64,000 bases of DNA from Candidatus Brockarchaeota archaeon. Lineage in GTDB: Archaea > Thermoproteota > EX4484-205 > JAAOZP01. The notes under the pieces were generated by a model. That model was not told the origin of the DNA. It saw only the letters and a list, made by a program, of their open reading frames with translations, and did not search any database. Location of the stretch: contig JAFNIT010000001.1 in NCBI GenBank assembly GCA_017601345.1, positions 12,835 through 76,834 of the forward strand. Direction: 5' to 3'. Below, piece by piece: positions 5,009 through 14,931 of this stretch. Position 1 is the stretch's first letter, and each line of letters starts with the position of its first letter. The translations under genes and the position numbers were made by a program.

Positions 5009-5644
5009 ATGCTGAAAAAGATTCTAAATAACAGAATTGGAACTGCTGATTGTATGATGATATGTTTGCCTGGTATCGGTCTAGTAGGCTCCTTAACCGG
5101 AGAGCTCTTAACTGAATCCGCTTCTGAAAATACTCCGGTGTTAGAATTTTACCCAGAATCGCTTCTCTACGTTTCAGTAGCATCTAAGGAGGGGCTAATA
5201 GCCCTGCCTAAAATAAGCGTTAACAAAGTTCGTTTAATAGAGATAGGAGATCTACTAATAGTTAGAGGAACTTCACAACCTACTGTTCAAATCAACCAGT
5301 ACGAGTTGGCTGAAAACCTTGTTGAGACTGCTGAGAAACACGGTGTTAAGATCGTTATTGGTGTAGGCGGATACGCTATCCCACACGTAGGTGATAAAAG
5401 AAAGGTATATCTCTCCTCATCTGATTGGCGGGCCTCTATGATCGGGGCTTCATTAGGGTTTTTACCGCTGAGGGGGACTGTTGTCGGCGCCGCCGGTTTA
5501 GTTCCGGGCCTCGCAAGCCTGCATGGTTTAAACAGTGCATGCATACTTGTTGAAACGAAGGGTGAAGGAGCTGATTTAACAGCTGCTCAAACCGCGTATA
5601 GTAATATTAAGAATTTCCTTAAAAAATATTTGAAGGAAGCTTAG
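5009..5644 (+). CDS. PAC2-family (proteasome assembly chaperone-like) protein
   Basis: Glycine-rich core (GIGLVGS...IVIGVGGYAIPHVGD...GTVVGAAGLVPGLASLHG) typical of the PAC2/COG1938 fold. The start codon may be an internal Met. Confidence 0.45.
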   Translation: MLKKILNNRIGTADCMMICLPGIGLVGSLTGELLTESASENTPVLEFYPESLLYVSVASKEGLIALPKISVNKVRLIEIGDLLIVRGTSQPTVQINQYELAENLVETAEKHGVKIVIGVGGYAIPHVGDKRKVYLSSSDWRASMIGASLGFLPLRGTVVGAAGLVPGLASLHGLNSACILVETKGEGADLTAAQTAYSNIKNFLKKYLKEA

Positions 5645-6060
5645 AACTCTGAAATCTCTTTAACAAATTCATTATATATCTCGCTGACCTTTTCCGCAGC
5701 AAGGCCGCTTCCTTCTACAACACCGTTTTCAGTAACCCTTATTCTATTCATTACTATTATTACCCCTGCTTCCTCATTATACTGCACCATTTTAGGAAAT
5801 ACCCTTTCTATTCTCTCCGCCAGTTTCCTCAGGTCGATGATTGCTCTTTTAAGCTCTATTCTTTTTACATCTCTACCATTAAGTATAATTTTTGGCAACA
5901 CACCGCCTCCTTTTAGCTCTACGTTATTCAGAATAACCGAAAAAGTGTCTATGTCTAGAGATGCTAAAACTCCAGAAAATTCTTCACCACCCTGAGTAAC
6001 CACGACAACCTTTTTCCCTATCAAGCGGTTGACTTCTGTTGTGAATCCCGTCCTCATCAT
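5641..6060 (-). CDS. Sm-like (LSm) fold protein with C-terminal extension (SmAP3-like)
   Basis: N-terminal segment GKKVVVVTQGGEEFSGVLASLDIDTFSVILNNVE resembles the Sm1/Sm2 motifs; a ~70-aa extra C-terminal domain follows. This is a weak, sequence-only call. Confidence 0.35.
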   Translation of the reverse strand: MMRTGFTTEVNRLIGKKVVVVTQGGEEFSGVLASLDIDTFSVILNNVELKGGGVLPKIILNGRDVKRIELKRAIIDLRKLAERIERVFPKMVQYNEEAGVIIVMNRIRVTENGVVEGSGLAAEKVSEIYNEFVKEISEF

Positions 6061-6176
6061 TTTAACCCATTTTTACACTTCACCCCCTATTTTTAATACT
6101 TTCTGAAGCACGTTATTTACTTTAGAGCATAATTCTATTTCATAGCAGCTTTTATCGATTAACAGACTATCTTACT

Positions 6177-7106
6177 TTGAAGATGCGCCAAGAAGTAGTC
6201 CAAGACTTTACGAAATGCCCTAACTGTAACTCCCCTATTATAAATTCGGATAATGAGCTTGTTTGCAGCAGATGTGGTCTAGTTGTCAGTGCTTCAAACA
6301 GATATGTGGCCTATCCAAGTCCGAATCACATTATTCAAAAAGAACCTCATTACGGGAGCACTATTATAGAGAGAAACTCTCTTAGAAAAATATCCAGCCT
6401 CCAAAAAAGCATATCTTCCCCTAATAAAAGCGAAAACGAATTAAAATGGTTAATAGATAAATTGTGTGATACATTTCATTTAGGTCCCTCAATAAGACTG
6501 GAATCGCATCGGATTGGTTTAAGTCTGCTTCATGCATTCAGACAAAATCATGAGAGACCTAATAGAGCAGCTATTGCAACATATTCTGTAGTTACTGCAG
6601 CAAGGTTTCACGGCTTAAACACAACTCTTCATTACAAGAAGATAAGAACATATTTGCAAAGCATAGGTCTTAAAGTTAAAACCAGGGATGTTCTTCAAGT
6701 AATATCTGCAGCAAGAGGAATAGGCCTTATGGAAGCGAGAAATGATGCCGACAATACAATTATTGAAATTACGTCTATGATCATGAGGAATAATAGCCGT
6801 CTGGAAAAGCTTAAGCCTGAAGACAAAGTCAGTTTTATCAATCATCTTAGAACAATCTCATTCAGAATTCTCAAAGATTTAAGAGCCAAACATTATTTTT
6901 TTAGAAGCAAGAACCCGATGATATGCATAGCTTCTATAATTTACGCAGCATCTAGAGAGGCGGCATCAATCTTAAACATCAAAAACCCTGTTACTCAAAG
7001 GGAATTAGCAGAGTACATAGGGTATGCAGAATACAGTGTTAGAGAAACTTATGAGGAATTGTTTGGAAAAAGTTCATCAATATTCGATTCTTCACAGATT
7101 TCTTGA
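6177..7106 (+). CDS. Transcription initiation factor TFB-family protein, divergent paralog
   Basis: N-terminal zinc ribbon CPNC-x15-CSRC, then about 270 aa of cyclin-fold-length sequence. The B-reader/linker and core positions are poorly conserved compared with canonical TFB. Confidence 0.7.
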   Translation: MKMRQEVVQDFTKCPNCNSPIINSDNELVCSRCGLVVSASNRYVAYPSPNHIIQKEPHYGSTIIERNSLRKISSLQKSISSPNKSENELKWLIDKLCDTFHLGPSIRLESHRIGLSLLHAFRQNHERPNRAAIATYSVVTAARFHGLNTTLHYKKIRTYLQSIGLKVKTRDVLQVISAARGIGLMEARNDADNTIIEITSMIMRNNSRLEKLKPEDKVSFINHLRTISFRILKDLRAKHYFFRSKNPMICIASIIYAASREAASILNIKNPVTQRELAEYIGYAEYSVRETYEELFGKSSSIFDSSQIS

Positions 7107-7552
7107 CGAAGAAAATGTACTATATTGCTACTACGCCTAATTGAGAAAAATCCTTCACAGTCTTCTGCATAAGCCTCAACGGCTATTTGGATAACGTATT
7201 CTTCAGTATTATTGAGGAAAACAATAGAGTTTTCAAAGCGGATTTTTAATCCGCATTCTTCTAAAAATCCTTTGGTTTTTGAAACTTTTTCTATTAATTT
7301 TTCAATCCTCTTTTCTAAGGTTTCCCTCATAATTGAAAAATTCCCTCTCGAACCACTTATGCTATCATCCAGAATTGTGCTAATGCTTTTAAAGAAATCA
7401 TCTATACAGGAGTCAGCGATGATCGCTTTCCTTTTTTGTTTTAAGAAATTTACTGAAAGCTCAACGTTTACTAAGAGCATGAGGTTTACTGCAAGTAGAA
7501 CAATCATCATGAGAATTGAAAAAAACATTATAATAAGCCAGGTTTTAATCAT
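7049..7552 (-). CDS. Small membrane-anchored protein (N-terminal signal-anchor; pilin-like/pilus-associated candidate)
   Basis: N-terminus MIKTWLIIMFFSILMMIVLLAVNLMLL followed by a soluble domain. Last gene of a five-gene overlapping minus-strand operon. Its 3' end overlaps the TFB-paralog 3' end by 58 nt. Confidence 0.45.
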   Translation of the reverse strand: MIKTWLIIMFFSILMMIVLLAVNLMLLVNVELSVNFLKQKRKAIIADSCIDDFFKSISTILDDSISGSRGNFSIMRETLEKRIEKLIEKVSKTKGFLEECGLKIRFENSIVFLNNTEEYVIQIAVEAYAEDCEGFFSIRRSSNIVHFLRQEICEESNIDELFPNNSS

Positions 7553-7940
7553 TTCTAATCCCTATCGTAAGATACAATACATCTTCACCCACGATCTTTA
7601 AGACTTTGACATATCTGACCTGCTCCAAAGACTCTATTGAAACTTCCTCATTCCTTATTGTGATCCTCCCATGCTTCTCGCTGGAAAGCTCTATACTCAC
7701 CCATTTCACTTCATCAGAATTTAGAAACTTAATCAATTTATCAAGCATATTTTTAATCTCATGTTCTCGGTCAAGTATTGTAAGTGCATTAACCTCTATT
7801 CTCAAATCCTCATCGATATCGGATAATGATTTAAATTTCAACCTCAAATATTGGGAAGCAGCAACTACGGGTATAACTAGAAAGAAGCTTAAGATTATTG
7901 CTAATATACTTTCCCAAGAATCCATAGTATTTTTCACCAC
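7545..7940 (-). CDS. Small membrane-anchored protein (pilin-like candidate)
   Basis: N-terminal hydrophobic segment SILAIILSFFLVIPVVAAS. Start and stop overlap the neighbouring genes. Confidence 0.45.
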   Translation of the reverse strand: MVKNTMDSWESILAIILSFFLVIPVVAASQYLRLKFKSLSDIDEDLRIEVNALTILDREHEIKNMLDKLIKFLNSDEVKWVSIELSSEKHGRITIRNEEVSIESLEQVRYVKVLKIVGEDVLYLTIGIRND

Positions 7941-8065
7941 CTTTTGATGAAATCCATTATAATAGATATATTATGTAAGGTAAGCAAAAGAGCTAAACCA
8001 AGTTCGATTATTATCAGCAAGACTACGATTGAGGAGAATAGTGATTCAAGTAGCTTATCGCTCAT
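7937..8065 (-). CDS. Putative 42-aa hydrophobic micro-protein
   Basis: Minus-strand ORF MSDKLLESLFSSIVVLLIIIELGLALLLTLHNISIIMDFIKRW, not in the ORF track. Its ATG overlaps the stop of the upstream gene, fitting the overlap pattern of this operon. Confidence 0.3.
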
Positions 8066-8453
8066 GTCTAGTAAATACAACCTCCCTACCTGATGCTTTG
8101 ACAAAATATTTGCCTCCGGGTTCTAAAATAACTCTATTAAAGTAATAATATTCCTCTTCTCCCTCGAAAACACAGATTCCATGAACAATGATGTAATACT
8201 TGTTGCCGTCAAGCATAATGGAATAATTAATTAAGGGGGGATTTGGCATTAACAGAGTGAAAGCACATCCATGTTTCTCCGAGAGGATAGCGTATTGTTT
8301 TATTACTAAAAATATGCTTTCAAAGATATTTTTTAATGAACCAGTTTTCAGAATGTAAGTGGTATTAAAAATAACAATTCCTATTAGAAATGACGTAAAA
8401 AGCCATGAAGCATCTTTCAAATGCTCTTCAAGTATTTCGCTCAATGACCTCAC
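8055..8453 (-). CDS. Small membrane-anchored protein with beta-rich C-terminal domain (pilin-like candidate)
   Basis: Charged N-terminus, then WLFTSFLIGIVIFNTTYIL, then a ~90-aa globular domain. Confidence 0.45.
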   Translation of the reverse strand: MRSLSEILEEHLKDASWLFTSFLIGIVIFNTTYILKTGSLKNIFESIFLVIKQYAILSEKHGCAFTLLMPNPPLINYSIMLDGNKYYIIVHGICVFEGEEEYYYFNRVILEPGGKYFVKASGREVVFTRHER

Positions 8454-8458
8454 CCAAG

Positions 8459-8641
8459 TTAGCTAGCAACCAGCTTAACTACGGCATCGTATATTTGCTT
8501 GAGCATAGGAACTACTTGATCAAGCAAGTAAGCAATACTGATTCCAAATATTATTGTTGAAAAAAGTACTATCAGACTTTTCTCTAACAGATTACCCATC
8601 TCTCTAAACCTCCCAGTTTGAAATTTTCTTTCATTATTCAA
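8459..8641 (-). CDS. Small membrane protein, possible class-III signal peptide (FREMG|NLLEK...)
   Basis: 60 aa: basic N-terminus, a Gly, then a 22-residue hydrophobic helix. First gene of the minus-strand operon. TATA-like TTATAAGCATTCTTATAG in the upstream divergent region. Confidence 0.45.
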   Translation of the reverse strand: MNNERKFQTGRFREMGNLLEKSLIVLFSTIIFGISIAYLLDQVVPMLKQIYDAVVKLVAS

Positions 8642-8729
8642 CAGAAATCTCTATAAGAATGCTTATAACCTCCAATGCGCGTCAATATTGGCGGATAAAT
8701 ATTCTTTTTAAAAGTTTGGAATAGAAGTG
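8642..8729. promoter_or_regulatory. Bidirectional promoter region between the two arms of the pilus-like locus
   Basis: 88-bp AT-rich spacer. TATA-like TTTTTAAAAG lies ~20 bp upstream of the plus-strand small ORF. TATA-like TTATAAG (minus orientation) lies 20-40 bp upstream of the minus-strand ATG at 8641. Confidence 0.4.
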
Positions 8730-8876
8730 ATGTCAAAAGACGATCTATTAATTAATGCAATAATTCAAGAAATAGAAGATTTGAAGATTAGTCTAAGCAA
8801 GCTCAACAATAGGGTTTTAAGCTTAGAGAAAAAGTATCGTGAGCTAAGCAATTTCCTAAAGGTTGTCTACAGATGA
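8730..8876 (+). CDS. 48-aa coiled-coil protein, translationally coupled to the downstream ATPase
   Basis: MSKDDLLINAIIQEIEDLKISLSKLNNRVLSLEKKYRELSNFLKVVYR with a heptad-like pattern. Its stop TGA overlaps the ATG of the 8873 ORF (ATGA). Not in the ORF track. Confidence 0.4.
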   Translation: MSKDDLLINAIIQEIEDLKISLSKLNNRVLSLEKKYRELSNFLKVVYR

Positions 8877-10753
8877 ACGAGACTAGAGAAAACCTTGTAT
8901 TTTTTGCGCAAAGAACATGGTCATGGAATGCTAAGAGTAAAATCCTATACCTATCTGCTCAGAAAATCGACTCTTCTCTTTTCTGCAACATTATACATAA
9001 GCTTACACATCTTTCCCCGAGAAGAATTATAGTTCATCTTGATGATGAATGGTACGAGGTCAATAAAGAATGCTTAGATTTTCTAAAGAAATGCTCTCAA
9101 AGAGTTATTGAAGAGAAAAACAAGCGTTATAAAGCTCTTGTTGAAAAAAATTGTGACGACTACGCTAACCTGGATGATATTCAGAAAGAGCTCTGTATTA
9201 CTCCGTCTTACGGTACCTTATACTTAAAATGCTTAAACCAGATGCTGGAACTTAATATACCCGGCGAGTTATTGACCAGATGCGATATTAAAGATATGGA
9301 AAATGTTTTTAACAAGAAGTTTTCGGACAACCATAGATACGTAATAGGCCACTTACTCTACTCAATAGACGAAAGAAATAGTCTTTACAGAGTTTCCTTC
9401 TTATCAGACGATTATTTCTGGATTAATAAAGAGCTTTCGATACTCCTACGTCATGCTTATTCTGAAGAAATGCTTAAGAGTGGAAGGCTAGATCAAATTT
9501 ACAGACACAGGCTTAAAACTGGTTTAAGATTCTTAAAAATTCTGACTTCAAGAGAAATCGAGAAGTCAGTAAAGAAGTCTCTCGTTAAACATGCTCTATA
9601 CTCTTCGATTGGATTATCCAAGATCTTTCCTTTAATAATCGATGATAATGTGCAAAACTTCTTCTTAGACAATGTTGGTGAAAAGTTGTATGTAGATCAC
9701 GCCGTTTTTGGAAGACTAGATACAAACCTCAGATTTCAAGAGAAGGATTTTGAAAGCTTCATAACCCTGATCAAAAGAGAATCTAACCTTAATCTGGATT
9801 ATGCTAATCCTTCAATTAAGACTTCCATATTTTTTGATAAAATACCTATAAGAATTTCGGTAGATATTCCTCCCCTAACTTGGGGTAAGGGAGTTATAGA
9901 TGTACGGAAGCATATGAGTAATGTTCTTTCTCTCAAGTACCTTCTGGAGACGCATTATTTTTCTCCAGAATCCGTTGCCTTCTTAATCTTTGCCACACTT
10001 AACAGGGCCAACATATCTATAGTTGGAGAACCGAATTCTGGAAAAACTTCTCTCTTAAACTTTTTGAGCTACTTCATGCCCTCCTGGTGGCGCATAGTGC
10101 ACATAGAAGATGCTCTTGAAACACTCCCCCAAAGAGTTTCTGATCAACACAGGATAGTATACATTGTCGAGCCATTCGAAAGCAGGGAAGCTAAGGATAC
10201 TAAAACTCTCGAAATAATTAAGGTACTTCACAGAACCCCTTCTTATCTAATTCTTGGAGAAATCCAGACTAGAGGGCATGTAAAAGCAATGTTTCGAGCA
10301 GTTTCCGCTGGACTCAGGATAATGCATACTGCACATGCTTCCGATAGCAATGGATTTATTAAGAGGCTTGTAAAAGTATACGGTATCCCAGAGCTACTCA
10401 TATCGGAACTGGACTTGATAATAACTATGAAGAGAGTAGAATGGAGAAATACAGTTAAACGGTTTATAAGCGAGATAAAGATAGTTGATGAGAACTCTGG
10501 TTTGAAGAAAGTTTACGCTAATAATAATTTTTTAAAAAATTCTGCATACTATGATGATTTAAACGCTTCAAAGATATTTAGAAAATTAGCACGTTTAAAC
10601 TGTATTGAAGAAAATGTTCTTCAAGAAATGTATGAGGATATTAAAAGAATAATTATTAATCACGCTTTTTCAGAAAACTCCGTTATCAGGAAGCTTGTTA
10701 TTGAAACCTATTCGAAGACTTTAGGGGGAAATAGAAGCTATGAAAAGTATTAA
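8873..10753 (+). CDS. Type II/IV secretion-system ATPase (FlaI/TadA/VirB11 family) with a long N-terminal extension
   Basis: Walker A SIVGEPNSGKTSLLNF at about residue 386. Asp box/Walker B LILGEIQTRGH. His box MHTAHASD. Roughly 350 aa of N-terminal sequence precedes the P-loop. Confidence 0.85.
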   Translation: MNETRENLVFFAQRTWSWNAKSKILYLSAQKIDSSLFCNIIHKLTHLSPRRIIVHLDDEWYEVNKECLDFLKKCSQRVIEEKNKRYKALVEKNCDDYANLDDIQKELCITPSYGTLYLKCLNQMLELNIPGELLTRCDIKDMENVFNKKFSDNHRYVIGHLLYSIDERNSLYRVSFLSDDYFWINKELSILLRHAYSEEMLKSGRLDQIYRHRLKTGLRFLKILTSREIEKSVKKSLVKHALYSSIGLSKIFPLIIDDNVQNFFLDNVGEKLYVDHAVFGRLDTNLRFQEKDFESFITLIKRESNLNLDYANPSIKTSIFFDKIPIRISVDIPPLTWGKGVIDVRKHMSNVLSLKYLLETHYFSPESVAFLIFATLNRANISIVGEPNSGKTSLLNFLSYFMPSWWRIVHIEDALETLPQRVSDQHRIVYIVEPFESREAKDTKTLEIIKVLHRTPSYLILGEIQTRGHVKAMFRAVSAGLRIMHTAHASDSNGFIKRLVKVYGIPELLISELDLIITMKRVEWRNTVKRFISEIKIVDENSGLKKVYANNNFLKNSAYYDDLNASKIFRKLARLNCIEENVLQEMYEDIKRIIINHAFSENSVIRKLVIETYSKTLGGNRSYEKY

Positions 10754-11321
10754 GAAGCTTTTAACATCTCTTTACATTTTAGCACCAATAAGGAAAAAAG
10801 AAGAGAGTTCTTATGAGATAGTGACTCCATTGGTAATGGATATCATTACTGCTAAAACAATTTATAATGATTTATATAAGACATTTTATAGCGTTTCAAA
10901 AAAGGAATATGGCAATATCTACAGCTTATTAAGAAAATGTCTTAGGGAGAACTTAAATGGGAAGGATATGCAAAAAATGATAAAAAATTCTTTACAAAAT
11001 GATCCAGAACTATTAACTATTATTGATCAAGCATTTTCCATCGATGTAAAGAAAATAAGTTCAGAAGAAGTCCTAGTGCTCTTTAGGATTTTTGAATCTA
11101 AGGCAAGAAGGAAATATCAAGAATATACTCTAAAGCTTAACTCCTTGGTTTCTATTTTCTTCTTCTATATCTTCCTTGTTCCAACTCCAATTATACTGAT
11201 CTCAGAATTCCTGCCACAGACTTCCTATATACTACTGCCAATCTTTTTCATTTCCAATACCCTGATATTTAGAATATTTTTTAATAAGATTAGGAGGATC
11301 AAGAGTGAATTATTAGGTTGA
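10740..11321 (+). CDS. TadB/TadC-like platform protein, first half (single T2SSF-like unit)
   Basis: A ~130-aa cytoplasmic helical domain followed by hydrophobic helices (SLVSIFFFYIFLVPTPIILISEF, SYILLPIFFISNTLIFRIFF). Its ends overlap the ATPase upstream and the next ORF downstream. Confidence 0.55.
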   Translation: MKSIKKLLTSLYILAPIRKKEESSYEIVTPLVMDIITAKTIYNDLYKTFYSVSKKEYGNIYSLLRKCLRENLNGKDMQKMIKNSLQNDPELLTIIDQAFSIDVKKISSEEVLVLFRIFESKARRKYQEYTLKLNSLVSIFFFYIFLVPTPIILISEFLPQTSYILLPIFFISNTLIFRIFFNKIRRIKSELLG

Positions 11322-12091
11322 GGAATATTTATTATTATATATTAATTGAAGCAGGAATTCTTATTTTAGCATTTATCTTAAAACTCGAGATTCCAGCTAT
11401 AACTTCATTGCAACTTCTAGTATATACATTAATATTGACCAAAAATGGAGATGATGTGGATTCTCCAAAAACACTGGATTTGAGAGCAGTGGAGAAGATA
11501 TCCGAATATCCTGGAAACTTGGAAAATTTAGTTTTTAAATCATTTTCAGATATTAATGGGGAAACGGATTGTCGTAAGATTTTCGAAAAAGCTATTCACG
11601 ACAACATAAACGGTTTTCCAATAGGAAAAGCTCTAGTAAAGTATTCCAAACCATCAGATAAAACTATTAAAATATTGATGAAACTCGTTTCAAGCCTATT
11701 CGTTAGAGATGCGTCTTCTGTCAAAAAAGTTTTAGAAACATATATTATCATTCTGAAAGAAAACGAGATATTGAAAAATGAGAGAAGAAACATTTTTTCA
11801 GAGGCGAGGTTTAGAGCCAGAATAATGCTAATCGTTAGTGCTCTTTTAATGGGATTTCTTTCAGCAACGGGACCAGTAATCCACATGTTCTCTTCTTTTT
11901 CATCAAAGCCGATTCTTCAATTAGAAGCATCGCAAACATTTTCATTATTTACGTATTTACTGAGCGTTTCGATACTAGTACATTATTCTCTCTCTTATAA
12001 GAAGCTTTTGAAAACATTGCTATACTCCATAACCAGTTTTGCACTCTCTTTTCTAATATTTAACAAAGTACTTACAGCATTCCTATTTTAA
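11318..12091 (+). CDS. TadC/FlaJ-like platform protein, second half (polytopic membrane protein)
   Basis: Two N-terminal TM helices, a ~130-aa soluble domain, and three C-terminal TM helices. The ATGA-type overlap with the preceding ORF suggests two coupled genes rather than one fused FlaJ. Confidence 0.55.
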   Translation: MRNIYYYILIEAGILILAFILKLEIPAITSLQLLVYTLILTKNGDDVDSPKTLDLRAVEKISEYPGNLENLVFKSFSDINGETDCRKIFEKAIHDNINGFPIGKALVKYSKPSDKTIKILMKLVSSLFVRDASSVKKVLETYIIILKENEILKNERRNIFSEARFRARIMLIVSALLMGFLSATGPVIHMFSSFSSKPILQLEASQTFSLFTYLLSVSILVHYSLSYKKLLKTLLYSITSFALSFLIFNKVLTAFLF

Positions 12092-12110
12092 ATGTCTCTT
12101 AATTCCATTG

Positions 12111-12125
12111 GAGCTTATATTTTGT
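12111..12125 (+). promoter_or_regulatory. Putative internal promoter (TATA-like) for the pilin gene
   Basis: GAGCTTATATTTTG lies about 35 bp upstream of ATG 12158, inside the only non-overlapping gap (66 bp) of the operon. Confidence 0.3.
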
Positions 12126-12350: not shown

Positions 12351-14123
12351 ATGGATCAAAAAATAGATCCAATATACTTCGTATTTCTTATAGTGTTACT
12401 CATATCGATGCTTAAACATATTGCAGCCGCTTTGCCTTTTTCTTTCAACAATTACTTTCCTGCCGTTTTGCCTACAGTATTCTCCCTAATAACAATCATA
12501 ATAGTATTTTTATTAAAACGCTCCAAATCTATTAAAAGTATACTACCAATTAATGACGAAAAATACTTTATTGTGAAAACAGACTCTTCTGAATTAATAA
12601 TAGGAGGGGTTTCAATATCCCCTGAAGAAAGCTCTGAATTAAGAAGTATTAAAGCCGACGATTACTATCGGAGGGTTCAGAGTTTCATAAGTGGTATTTT
12701 AAAGTCCGGAGTTTCACTCACATGCGTAACGCATATTTCTCCCGTTGAGGCTTTTGAGGACTCTGCTCATTTGACGCAGCTTTTAATAGTCAGTAGAAAA
12801 ATAGGTCGAGAGGGTATTAACGAAGCTATAAAAATGCTTGAAACAGATATTGAAAAAATGAGATCTATTTACAATACTGCTTTTCCAGAACTGAAAATAG
12901 TCAGGTTGAGTGGAGAGAAACTTATTAAGTATTTGAACAGTATTTTAATAGATAAGTCTGTCTTAGGAAAGTCTAAAGTAAGAGATTTAGCAAATTCGCT
13001 CGCACTGCATGTACCTGGATATACTTCCCTGCTTCCTTCAAATTCTTATATTGAACATGAGGGGGGAAAAGAAACGATAGATTTAGGATCGGTTATTTTC
13101 AGTGGTTCTAAAATTGCTCCGTTAAAATTAAAGATCAATATGTTTGAAAAGCATGTTGCCATATATGGTTCAACAGGATCGGGAAAGACAACTACCGCCA
13201 AACATATAGTGAGAGAATTAGCAAGATTGGGATATTCTTTAATGATTCTAGACTGGCATAATGAATACCGTCATCTTGCAGAAGAGCTTAATGGAAGAAT
13301 TTTAGGATTAGGGTCTTTCGCTTTAGATATAATTAACCCCATTGAATCTAGCAATGTATCTGAGCATGTTGCAATGGTTACAGATATTTTTGATCAAATA
13401 TATAATTTTACACCGTCACAATCGTATATGTTTAGAGAGGTGCTTTTACAAACGTTAACAGAGAACATGCTCGGTATTAAAGCATATGATCCTTTGGTTT
13501 CCTTTATAGATACGTTGGAGAAATGGAGTATTAAATCATTCTATGAAAATGAGACAAAGTTTGCATTGTTAAGAAGATTAAGACCTTTAGTAACAGGACA
13601 GAACAGAGAAATTTTCTGCAATAGGGATAAGCTAATAAGCATCAGAGATATATTAGAAGGAATTACTGTTTTCGAGCTCGGAGATATCATAGAAGTAGAC
13701 ATGCGTAAACTGACTTCACTTTTCATTTTAGCATTACTTTACGAATTTAGATTAAAGAATAGGGATTCGAAGCGCCACTTCATCGTATTAGAAGAAGCGC
13801 ATAATATACTTCCTTACAGGAGGCGTGATTCACCACAGACTATAGCTGAAAAATTATTTTTAGAGATGAGGAAGTTTAATGAAAGTTTAATACTTATATC
13901 ACAATTTCCGTCGCAAATTTCTCCAGAAATAGTAAAGTCCACCGGTTTGAAAATCTCTCACAGAATATGTGAGGGGGAGGAGTCGAGAATCTTAATGGAT
14001 ATAATGGGCTTATCTCAGGAAGATTATGACCTTCTTAAGAGGCTTCCCCCGGGATATGGCTTTTTAACGGCTGAAGGCATTTCTAAACCAATCTTTTTAT
14101 CTATCTATTTCAACGAAAAATGA
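12351..14123 (+). CDS. Membrane-anchored HerA/VirB4(CedB)-like P-loop ATPase (DUF87/FtsK-HerA superfamily)
   Basis: Two N-terminal TM helices (IYFVFLIVLLISMLKHIAAALPF; AVLPTVFSLITIIIVFLLK). Walker A YGSTGSGKTTTAKHI. Walker B FIVLEEAHNILP. A C-terminal LILISQFPSQI...ISHRI motif typical of HerA/VirB4/TrbE ATPases. Confidence 0.75.
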   Translation: MDQKIDPIYFVFLIVLLISMLKHIAAALPFSFNNYFPAVLPTVFSLITIIIVFLLKRSKSIKSILPINDEKYFIVKTDSSELIIGGVSISPEESSELRSIKADDYYRRVQSFISGILKSGVSLTCVTHISPVEAFEDSAHLTQLLIVSRKIGREGINEAIKMLETDIEKMRSIYNTAFPELKIVRLSGEKLIKYLNSILIDKSVLGKSKVRDLANSLALHVPGYTSLLPSNSYIEHEGGKETIDLGSVIFSGSKIAPLKLKINMFEKHVAIYGSTGSGKTTTAKHIVRELARLGYSLMILDWHNEYRHLAEELNGRILGLGSFALDIINPIESSNVSEHVAMVTDIFDQIYNFTPSQSYMFREVLLQTLTENMLGIKAYDPLVSFIDTLEKWSIKSFYENETKFALLRRLRPLVTGQNREIFCNRDKLISIRDILEGITVFELGDIIEVDMRKLTSLFILALLYEFRLKNRDSKRHFIVLEEAHNILPYRRRDSPQTIAEKLFLEMRKFNESLILISQFPSQISPEIVKSTGLKISHRICEGEESRILMDIMGLSQEDYDLLKRLPPGYGFLTAEGISKPIFLSIYFNEK

Positions 14124-14709
14124 GATTCAGCTTCTCGGAATGCTTAGAGAAATAACTAATCCAATCCACTTCATCACTCTTACATTTAAAGTCATTCTTA
14201 TAGCATTTCATAAACCTGTAATAGAGGTTTTTAATGCTTTTCCTAGTAGTGTCTAACTGTATGATCCTTACCTTTTTCAAGTATTTTTTAGCATTTAAGT
14301 AACAATAATCCGTAAGCTCCGATTCAACATTCTCCCTCGCTTTTTCCTCATTATATCCTTTAATTTTCCTGAGTCTATGCCAAAGAACATCAGGTCTGCA
14401 TCTCAATACGATACAACAGTCCACGTACTCAGCTGGAGAAACCTCCGCAGCATAATGGCCGTCTATTAGGAGGTTTAAATCCTCTCCAAGCTTGCTTAAA
14501 ATATATTTTCGTAAAGCCTTCTTCAGAACGCTTGTATCCACAATTCTAGTTTTCATAATACTGTCGTAGCCGATTACAGCATTCGAATCTATTGCAAACT
14601 TTCCCAAGTCAAGATGTACCCATCCTCTATTCTTTCTCACTACATAGCTGCACAGAGATGTTTTGCCGGTTCCAGCTGTGCCAGTAACAACTATGATTTT
14701 CCTCATCAC
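14110..14709 (-). CDS. Putative adenylate kinase / NTPase, Fap7-like (AAA-family kinase)
   Basis: P-loop IIVVTGTAGTGKTS at the N-terminus. ~200 aa with NMP-kinase-like layout. Confidence 0.55.
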   Translation of the reverse strand: MMRKIIVVTGTAGTGKTSLCSYVVRKNRGWVHLDLGKFAIDSNAVIGYDSIMKTRIVDTSVLKKALRKYILSKLGEDLNLLIDGHYAAEVSPAEYVDCCIVLRCRPDVLWHRLRKIKGYNEEKARENVESELTDYCYLNAKKYLKKVRIIQLDTTRKSIKNLYYRFMKCYKNDFKCKSDEVDWISYFSKHSEKLNLIFR

Positions 14710-14812: not shown

Positions 14813-14887
14813 AGCGGCGTTCGTCTAGTCTGGTTAGGACACCAGCCTTCCAAGCTGGGGATCCCGGGTTCAAATCCCGGACGCCGC
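14813..14887 (+). tRNA. tRNA-Gly(TCC)
   Basis: Manual fold: acceptor GCGGCGT/ACGCCGC plus A73. D-stem GTCT/GGAC. Anticodon stem CCAGC/GCTGG with loop CTTCCAA (anticodon TCC). T-arm CCGGG-TTCAAAT-CCCGG. 75 nt, no intron. Confidence 0.85.
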
Positions 14888-14931
14888 ATAAAAGCCTAAT
14901 AACCCATTTACCTCTTCTGCATAAGGTTTAG

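Follow-up and report, generated by a model that had tools for sequence, protein, structure and literature searches.

A divergent TFB-like gene beside a pilus and CedD-like ATPase module in a Candidatus Brockarchaeota archaeon: a candidate dedicated transcription initiation factor

We analyzed a 64,000-nucleotide stretch of contig JAFNIT010000001.1 from a Candidatus Brockarchaeota archaeon (assembly GCA_017601345.1), hereafter the window, and in it a divergent gene of the transcription factor B (TFB) family that adjoins genes for a pilus and for a CedD-like DNA-translocase ATPase. We consider it fairly probable that this specialized TFB paralog is a dedicated transcription initiation factor, or co-factor, of the adjacent pilus and DNA-translocase module, with a cognate B-recognition element (BRE) of its own. 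Three lines of evidence support this reading: the linkage of the gene to the module across archaea, its CedD-family neighbor, whose counterpart in Sulfolobales depends on the TFB paralog Tfb3, and a G-rich element shared by the module promoters at the position of the BRE. These same three results support a preliminary description of the stretch, which had proposed an extra, dedicated TFB paralog acting by a logic like that of Tfb3 on the ups and ced genes.

Linkage of the TFB-like gene to the module across archaea

A T2SSE-type ATPase gene adjoins the TFB-like gene in all ten members of the family that were looked up, and a DUF87 (CedD-like) ATPase gene does so in eight of them. The ten members comprised three from Brockarchaeota-like genomes, one from a sister lineage (P0178), one from Baldrarchaeia/Odinarchaeota (P0182), one from Nitrososphaerales (P0199), one labelled 'Thermoprotei' (P0206), and the members P0029, P0033, and P0031 from further lineages. 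A reverse search was also performed, in which one genome per species was scanned with an alignment of the DUF87 protein and all open reading frames (ORFs) were then searched with hidden Markov models. In all 15 archaeal loci with a strong DUF87 match and enough upstream DNA, the TFB-like gene was located ~6 kb and the ATPase gene ~3.3 kb upstream, in the same orientation. These loci came from metagenome-assembled genomes (MAGs) labelled Thermoproteota, Thaumarchaeota/Nitrososphaeria, Geothermarchaeota, Methanomethylicota, Methanosuratincola, and Thermoprotei.

The module has one fixed gene order: the TFB-like gene (+); four to five small one-helix proteins (-); and then genes (+) for a small coiled-coil protein, the T2SSE-type ATPase, a pair of membrane proteins, a 60-85-aa protein, and the DUF87 ATPase, with a reduced form of the module in Baldrarchaeia. 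The wider flanks vary by lineage, except that 17 of 27 module loci (Baldrarchaeia included) have an Lsm_C gene to the left and 23 of 27 have a Fap7-like kinase gene to the right. In most lineages the TFB-like gene forms a separate transcription unit, as is usual for regulators.

The preliminary description had placed the gene next to a pilus/ATPase locus, and the presence of this locus was confirmed. The product of 8873-10753, of T2SSE/FlaI type, matches Pfam T2SSE (E 6e-13) and, in the PDB, archaeal GspE 2oap (3e-20), FlaI (5e-18), and CpaF (8e-14). For the product of 12351-14123, the best family is the NCBIfam CedD model NF053655 (E 4.3e-61; 207 bits, below the 600-bit equivalog cut-off), with residues 13-585 covering model positions 4-525 of 527; HerA follows at E 2e-16 and further HerA/VirB4 models at 1e-16 to 1e-11. 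A profile of the window-type DUF87 ATPase retrieves the CedD of a Sulfolobales MAG at E 2.5e-66. Two N-terminal hydrophobic helices, an N-terminal domain, a DUF87 domain at residues 244-458, and the Walker A motif GSTGSGKT agree with the published architecture of CedD (PMC11868833).

The same description had noted radA about 5 kb upstream, and the gene was found at 324-1316, 4.9 kb upstream of the TFB-like gene. As a functional link, radA was rejected: its position reflects housekeeping synteny within the Brockarchaeota-like group, and it is missing there in the sister lineage L009.

A shared G-rich element at the module promoters

The region 8642-8729, earlier described as a bidirectional promoter, proved to be divergent, with two outward-facing TATA boxes. 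The pattern TTGGNGGWTAWAW occurs exactly twice in the 64 kb, against 0.15 expected, both times in this divergent promoter and facing outward. When one mismatch was allowed, a single extra site appeared, directly before the pilin gene at 12108-12120. Across six Brockarchaeota-like loci, the divergent region retains the invariant blocks CTTATAAC-CCAA and ATTGG-G-ATAAATA, and a slightly relaxed pattern is present at the three places in all six loci, with no other copy in 178 kb.

Other lineages have versions of their own at these three places. GGGGTTTAAAT is present in three copies in L028, at module promoters only. TTGGCGTATTTAA precedes the plus operon in L012 and L036, whose pilin genes are preceded by TTGGCTC-TTAAAT and TTGGTGA-TTATAT; the versions in L018 are GTGGACGC and GTTGGCGC, and that of Methanomethylicota is G[TG]TGGCAC. 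Over 21 loci, some of them related, the relaxed pattern is enriched 32-fold in module promoter zones, the pattern having been chosen after the data were seen. The element sits directly upstream of the TATA box, where the helix-turn-helix (HTH) of TFB contacts the BRE, and it is G-rich, in contrast to the A-rich BRE read at the promoter of the neighboring Sm-like gene. No TTGGnGG element was found upstream of the TATA-like box of the TFB-like gene itself.

Three further observations concern these promoters. The promoter of the Sm-like gene (5641-6060) has an A-rich, canonical-looking BRE beside TATTAAAAA. Together, the paired elements in the divergent promoter make up a palindrome, CCAAT-N13-ATTGG (window 8676-8692), which is kept in relatives and might just as well be a single operator bound by a dimeric regulator. 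A copy of the relaxed motif (TTGGCTC-TTAAAT) lies at 6877-6889 on the minus strand, antisense within the TFB-like gene and about 160 nt past the end of the minus operon; it is common only to the near-identical locus L014, so its conservation is uninformative.

The protein as a divergent member of the TFB family

The ORF 6177-7106 (+) was confirmed in the window, where it opens at TTG 6177 and encodes 309 aa. The database protein P0001 is 100% identical, has 307 aa, and begins MRQE, and 25 other relatives align from the same point, so the true start is probably ATG 6183. Residue numbers given here follow the 309-aa ORF.

The preliminary description had credited the ORF with a TFB zinc ribbon and TFB length, and both hold. 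The ribbon, at residues 13-38, has four cysteines (CxxC-N14-CxxC at residues 14-33) and beta strands predicted by AlphaFold2 (AF2), and scores 28.4 bits with Pfam Zn_Ribbon_TF (PF08271), just below the cut-off of 29 (E 1e-6). It is kept in 16 of the 17 lineages of the TFB-like family. A combined B-reader and linker had been called lacking. The B-reader (GPEWRxF...R.G) is indeed absent between ribbon and core, and the canonical B-reader was left unaligned by hhalign. In its linker part, the claim calls for correction: a B-linker-like motif, the invariant Y59-G60-S61 (LGS[YF]xG in other lineages), is kept, and both hhalign runs aligned it to the GL.T.I of the canonical B-linker motif used for comparison, hD.GL.T.Ig.

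The core cyclin residues, likewise said to be lacking, turned out to be retained. In the AF2 model built from 26 family members (mean pLDDT 70; blocks 57-95, helical parts mostly >75), two five-helix bundles (84-181 and 190-297) follow disordered residues 39-80. The best PDB matches of this model in Foldseek are TFIIB/TFB over the full length (1d3u_B, TM-score 0.60 on the target), and the matches include the Pyrococcus woesei TFB core at 16% identity. The canonical TFB profile used for hhalign was built from eight TFBs, all with Pfam TFIIB and Zn_Ribbon_TF; the Brockarchaeota-like family matched it at 99.3% (E 1.3e-20) over 253 columns, both repeats covered, and an alignment of 12 lineages of the family matched it at 99.94% (E 1.4e-36) over 275 columns.

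The window protein has no match to the Pfam TFIIB repeat and reaches 24.6 bits with the NCBIfam TFB model, whose cut-off is 384, and PDB searches by sequence alone gave marginal TFIIB matches (E 0.02-0.4), so that establishing homology to TFB required the structure model and profile-profile comparison. Pfam TFIIB was matched at E < 0.01 by 10 of 12 lineage representatives of the family. The HTH is the most conserved part of the protein: TQRELAxYiGYAEYSVRETYEELF aligns to canonical TQR.LA...G.TEVTiRNRYKEL, with different residues in the recognition helix. In the 17-lineage alignment, the signature G.NP..LAA.A.Y.A...TQ...A...G.AEY[ST].RE replaces canonical TEVT.RNRYKEL.

The close family comprises 26 clusters with at least 52% identity, from MAGs labelled Brockarchaeota, Thermoproteota, or Nitrososphaerota, and it collapses to one 50%-identity cluster among 1.84 billion representatives. 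The next match has an E of 1e-26; since even the sister lineage is matched only at this level, the family evolves fast. An exhaustive profile search retrieved 168 proteins, of which the remaining ~165 are mostly of TFB length, with a zinc ribbon and LGS[YF]xG and no B-reader; canonical TFBs enter this search only at E ~1e-5 to 1e-4. The gene is a very divergent but genuine TFB-family copy, in a distinct TFB-like family. Nitrososphaeria are known to carry several canonical TFBs (PMC12448741), so the module orthologues there are plainly extra copies.

One locus departs from the common architecture. In L028, from the Thermoprotei AUK163 MAG, the TFB-like protein (1532-2449) is without the zinc ribbon, the remainder being kept.

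The parallel with Tfb3 and CedD in Sulfolobales

In Sulfolobales, tfb3 (saci_0665, SiRe_1717; PMC5817253, PMC6061795) lies two locus tags from cedD (saci_0667, SiRe_1715; PMC11823120, PMC11868833). The cedD gene is induced by ultraviolet light in a Tfb3-dependent manner (PMC11823120, PMC11868833, PMC6101591), and Tfb3 has been located at the cedD promoter by chromatin immunoprecipitation (PMC6101594). In a Sulfolobales MAG retrieved here (L030, 9299-13175), cedD and a zinc-ribbon ORF of 180 aa are 1.7 kb apart, separated only by a thermosome gene.

Tfb3 (saci_0665, SiRe_1717, SSO0280) resembles the window protein in being an extra TFB paralog that has a four-cysteine zinc ribbon but lacks the B-reader. 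Tfb3 switches on the ups pilus genes and the ced genes for DNA import, cedD included, and the window gene adjoins a pilus-plus-CedD-like set. The two proteins differ in build: Tfb3, of ~180 aa (172-180 aa for the Tfb3-like proteins of L030 and its relatives), consists of the zinc ribbon and a portion of cyclin fold 1, lacks an HTH, and is not itself a DNA-reading protein, whereas the window protein, at 307 aa, retains the full TFB length, including the second cyclin fold and the HTH. Orthology with Tfb3 was rejected. In hhalign, the Tfb3 profile matched canonical TFB at 98.5% (E 1.5e-15, 148-158 columns) and the TFB-like family at 95.6-96.8%, over 28 columns (the zinc ribbon) with the Brockarchaeota-like alignment and 80 columns with the 17-lineage alignment. 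Because Tfb3 is nearer to canonical TFB, the window gene is best regarded as an analogue of Tfb3, or as the outcome of a displacement of one by the other, and not as its orthologue.

Proposed mechanism and alternative explanations

We infer the following mechanism. The TFB-like protein would be made from its own ordinary promoter, and its two cyclin folds would bind promoter DNA already bound by TATA-binding protein (TBP). The altered C-terminal HTH (AEYSVRETYEE for TEVTxRNRYKE) would read a non-canonical BRE, TTGGnG[G/C], upstream of the TATA box at the three module promoters, and the zinc ribbon would then recruit RNA polymerase. Because the B-reader is missing, the housekeeping TFB may be required in trans, as with Tfb3, or a different route of promoter opening may be used. 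Functionally, such a factor would resemble an alternative sigma factor with its cognate promoter, co-inherited with its regulon; by analogy with Tfb3, Ups, and Ced in Sulfolobales, this regulon would probably function in contact between cells and in the import or exchange of DNA.

Several observations weigh against a dedicated initiation factor. The motif pattern was derived from the promoters in which it is counted, and the six Brockarchaeota-like loci are related; the G-rich element could also be the site of another regulator. The recognition helix is more acidic than that of canonical TFB (R-E-T-Y-E-E against R-N-R-Y-K-E), which is odd for a helix that reads DNA, and the missing B-reader is needed by canonical TFB for start-site selection and early transcription. 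No second TFB was found in the 64-kb window or in any locus retrieved. A profile search for canonical TFBs gave 6381 matches, and among the 120 listed, which carry euryarchaeal names or none, none could be tied to a Brockarchaeota-like genome. Finally, in L011, L095, and L096 the TFB-like gene shares one operon with the ATPase gene, overlapping the ATPase start in L011 and L096, an arrangement as compatible with a stoichiometric partner as with a regulator.

This last point leads to an alternative that we judge unlikely while giving it real weight, namely that the TFB-like protein is not a transcription factor but serves the pilus/translocase as a structural or adaptor subunit in the cytoplasm, or handles DNA together with the CedD-like ATPase, its TFB fold having been recruited for contacts with proteins or DNA. 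Besides the overlaps in L011 and L096 and the co-directional operon in L095, the lost B-reader, the acidic recognition helix, the ribbonless member in L028, and the pilin-less subclade 4D systems (ATPase, membrane protein, TFIIB homologue, RPB8; PMC4858521) are all in keeping with such a role. However, in most lineages the gene forms a separate transcription unit that converges with the minor-pilin operon, and the ribbon, B-linker-like motif, cyclin folds, and HTH are kept end to end, as contacts with promoter and RNA polymerase would need. A structural subunit would also leave unexplained the element shared at the BRE position by all module promoters.

That shared element is also what would be expected of a promoter-specific repressor or gatekeeper, which would hold the BRE/TATA of the module with TBP, be unable to initiate, and keep the module silent until displaced or degraded. 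The combination of a lost B-reader with a retained DNA- and TBP-binding core and zinc ribbon points the same way. Yet the only characterized TFB paralog without a B-reader, Tfb3, is an activator (PMC6101594, PMC6101591), and simple occlusion needs neither an RNA polymerase-binding zinc ribbon nor a B-linker-like motif; we therefore consider this explanation decidedly improbable.

We regard as very improbable the explanation that the locus is the remnant of an integrated conjugative element or virus and the gene a transcription factor of that mobile element. GC content falls from ~0.43 to 0.34 over 6.0-14.2 kb, 9 points under the flanks, with its lowest value of 0.29 around 10.4-11.0 kb; a tRNA-Gly(TCC) gene lies at 14814-14888 (+), just past the kinase gene; and in thaumarchaeal integrative and conjugative elements (ICEs), genes for TFIIB homologues accompany those for VirB4, FlaI, TadC, and pilins (PMC6563490). 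Against this, no integrase ORF was found in the window, no att-like repeat of the tRNA-Gly 3' end turned up near the module's opposite end, and no relatives were found in 2.9 million viral contigs. The position and gene order of the module are the same in relatives at 54-95% protein identity, and the order is kept in other classes as well. The GC dip is shared by the 95% relative L014, other lineages have a module GC within 0-5 points of the flanks, and module GC tracks host GC from 0.31 to 0.69. With GC following the host, no integrase or att repeat, and no viral relatives, the module is old and chromosomal rather than a recent island, despite the GC dip in the window.

That the gene encodes the general TFB, or one of several interchangeable housekeeping TFBs in a conserved housekeeping neighborhood (aspS, beta-CASP RNase, PAC2, SmAP, Fap7-like kinase), is scarcely credible: the housekeeping genes on its partly conserved flanks, the lack of a second TFB in the 64-kb window, and the lineage's canonical TFB not being found among the 120 of 6381 profile matches listed are outweighed by the absence of a B-reader and of a Pfam TFIIB match, an NCBIfam TFB score of 24.6 against 384 bits, divergence reaching E 1e-26 even to the sister lineage, same-position orthologues in Nitrososphaeria, where several canonical TFBs are known (PMC12448741), and a module linkage that holds where the flanks differ.

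Relation to other known systems and significance

Compared with canonical archaeal TFB and eukaryotic TFIIB, the window protein has the same build (zinc ribbon, linker, two cyclin repeats, C-terminal HTH), but it shares only ~15% identity, has no B-reader, has an altered recognition helix, and does not reach the Pfam and NCBIfam TFB models. Its gene is tied to one module, whereas canonical TFB serves all promoters.

Among the regulators predicted in archaeal type IV pilus loci, TFIIB homologues are the commonest (Makarova, Koonin and Albers 2016, PMC4858521). The same study described 'subclade 4D', which consists of an ATPase, a membrane protein with 4-5 transmembrane segments, a TFIIB homologue, and RPB8, has no pilins, and was suggested to have changed function, perhaps acting in a transcription-related pathway. 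Its TFIIB homologue, arCOG05559, has a single cyclin domain and occurs in Pyrobaculum and Thermoproteus only, and TFIIB homologues of type IV pilus loci also fall under arCOG01981; a FlaI-HerA pair of Cenarchaeum is listed there as 'non_specific' (PMC4858521). Like the present module, the 4D systems combine a TFIIB homologue with an ATPase, and the L095 locus also has an Rpo8 gene upstream. This Rpo8 gene and the XPD-like helicase in the L095 operon suggest that 4D is a reduced relative of the module. The present module itself, with its Flp-like pilin, CedD-like ATPase, and fixed order, is not in that study, nor are its lineage spread and the shared promoter element.

TFIIB genes are present in all thaumarchaeal ICEs (Krupovic et al., PMC6563490). 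These elements carry divergent TFIIB genes beside VirB4/HerA-type and FlaI-type ATPases, TadC-like proteins, and pilins, as in the window, and the TFIIBs have been proposed to redirect RNA polymerase (PMC6563490, PMC5797428). In ICEs, however, TFIIB mostly lies directly upstream of a parB-like gene and the element is flanked by att sites, whereas the window module is chromosomal, with a fixed position, host-like GC, and no integrase. Bacterial extracytoplasmic function (ECF)-type sigma factors offer a functional analogy only: there, too, a paralog of an initiation factor lies beside a small regulon with a dedicated promoter element, but the protein family and initiation machinery are unrelated, and no anti-factor is evident in the window.

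In the literature searched, we found no description of a module that unites a CedD-family ATPase with a Flp-like pilin in fixed order, of its lineage breadth, or of the shared BRE-like element.

It has long been asked whether the many archaeal TFB paralogs work as bacterial alternative sigma factors do, each reading a promoter code of its own, and most of the evidence to date is correlative. In the present case, the paralog, the operons that it presumably controls, and a candidate cognate BRE all fall within 8 kb and vary together across great evolutionary distances, offering a direct test with three promoters, one factor, and one motif. CedD-like translocases have so far been reported from Sulfolobales, Desulfurococcales, and Acidilobales, with TedD homologues in Thermoproteales and Thermofilales. 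The present loci extend the CedD-like range to relatives of ammonia oxidizers, methanogen-related Methanomethylicia, and Brockarchaeota-like archaea, where it is paired with a Flp-like pilus. This is possibly a common route of DNA exchange in uncultured archaea, and it provides evolutionary context for the Tfb3/Ups/Ced DNA-damage response.

A broader proposal can be put forward only tentatively, and we lean against rather than toward it. Among archaea, the gene may offer the first clear example of a TFB paralog that has a cognate BRE and is co-inherited with its regulon in the manner of an ECF sigma factor. The module, a compact set of Tad-like pilus and CedD translocase genes, might predate the split of the Thermoproteota classes, reach some Asgard archaea, and constitute a widespread apparatus of DNA uptake or exchange, of which the split Ups/Ced/Tfb3 system of Sulfolobales and the pilin-less 4D systems of Thermoproteales would be derived remnants.

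Other genes of the module and variant loci

The coordinates of the promoter elements, protein domains, and genes are collected in Table 1. Each of the five small proteins of the minus operon (7049-8599) has one N-terminal hydrophobic helix, and they are candidate minor pilins or pseudopilins. The last gene of this operon (7049-7552) overlaps the 3' end of the TFB-like gene convergently by 58 nt, an arrangement kept across phyla. Its first gene was listed as a 60-aa ORF, 8459-8641 (-). Relatives begin at ATG 8599 (46 aa, MGNLLEK), and the TATA box at ~8661-8667 puts the transcript start downstream of TTG 8641, so that ATG 8599 is probably the start.

On the plus strand, the small protein before the CedD-like ATPase carries the motif [KR]-[GA]-[SV]-[QP]-L-[IV]-E-E-[GA]-L-L followed by a hydrophobic helix, kept in 14 lineages; the window form is K-G|S-Q-L-I-E-E-G-L-L. 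From the alignment we read it as a putative Flp/Tad-type prepilin processing motif (G/xxxxEY). Pfam searches with the small pilin-like proteins, this prepilin included, and with the membrane proteins gave nothing above threshold, and no prepilin peptidase is encoded in the locus. A T2SSF match came only from the L012 orthologue of the first membrane protein and was under threshold (E 4.6e-4). A homology comparison of the two membrane-protein families gave 38%, no clear sign of kinship between them. Taken together, the ATPase, the prepilin motif, and the T2SSF-like and CedD matches indicate that the module combines a Tad-like pilus with a Ced-type translocase.

Table 1. Promoter elements, protein domains, and genes of the module in the window
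Feature	Position	Strand	Basis or remark
Sm-like protein, Lsm_C domain, divergent from TFB-like gene	5641-6060	-	left neighbor in 17/27 module loci
TATA-like box CTTTTATCG of TFB-like gene promoter	6149-6157	+	26-34 nt before ATG 6183; kept in Brockarchaeota-like relatives
TFB-like gene	6183-7106	+	ORF list, homologue starts, Pfam, AF2, Foldseek, hhalign
Zinc ribbon of TFB-like protein	aa 13-38, nt 6213-6290	+	Pfam, AF2
Disordered linker without B-reader	aa 39-80	+	AF2
YGS B-linker-like motif	aa 59-61, nt 6351-6359	+	hhalign
Cyclin fold 1	aa 84-181, nt 6426-6719	+	AF2
Cyclin fold 2	aa 190-297, nt 6744-7067	+	AF2
HTH TQRELAEYIGYAEYSVRETYEELF within cyclin fold 2	aa 273-296, nt 6993-7064	+	
Small proteins of minus operon	8055-8453, 7934-8104, 7545-7940, 7049-7552	-	
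Small protein, ~46 aa, starts MGNLLEK	8459-8599	-	minus operon gene
Divergent promoter region	8600-8726		two outward-facing TATA boxes, TTGGnGG before each
BRE-like element and TATA, minus operon (TTGGAGG-TTATAA)	8663-8675	-	
BRE-like element and TATA, plus operon (TTGGCGG-ATAAAT)	8688-8700	+	
Predicted coiled-coil protein, 49 aa, first plus-operon gene	8727-8876	+	kept in relatives
Secretion/pilus-assembly ATPase, FlaI / archaeal GspE / CpaF (TadA) type, N-terminal extension ~230 aa	8873-10753	+	
Two polytopic membrane proteins, candidate TadB/TadC-like platform	10740-11321, 11318-12091	+	position
Third BRE-like element and TATA (TTGGAGC-TTATAT), before pilin and CedD-like genes	12108-12120	+	same place in 6/6 Brockarchaeota-like loci
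Candidate Flp/Tad-like prepilin, ~60 aa	12164-12346	+	motif in alignment
CedD-family membrane-anchored HerA/VirB4-like ATPase	12351-14123	+	NCBIfam, Pfam
Fap7/AK6-like kinase (PRK03839, AAA_18), convergent with CedD-like gene	14110-14709	-	right neighbor in 23/27 loci

Some loci vary the common plan. In L095 (9425-19109, 'Thermoprotei' MAG), the module is one co-directional operon, with an Rpo8 (RpbG) gene directly upstream and an XPD-like DEAD_2 helicase gene after the DUF87 ATPase gene; the helicase and Rpo8 link the module to the subclade 4D systems and to DNA processing. In L096 (6810-13487), the TFB-like gene overlaps the ATPase gene by 4 nt, there is no DUF87 ATPase, and the locus ends in a ThermoDBP-related gene, resembling those for single-stranded DNA-binding proteins. 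An insertion sequence element with an rve/DDE_Tnp_IS240 transposase (13141-14256) lies between the minor-pilin and ATPase operons of L013, a Nitrososphaerales MAG, and splits the divergent promoter there.

A thermosome (Cpn60/TCP1) gene lies 2-3 kb past the module in two Brockarchaeota-like loci, L004 (20381-20951) and L005 (16183-16871). The thermosome genes near the module and near the cedD of L030 may be a trace of shared ancestral synteny. The kinase gene usually overlaps the CedD-like gene convergently and is retained even where all other flanks differ; the Fap7/AK6-like kinase may be a functional part of the module or an ancient anchor gene.

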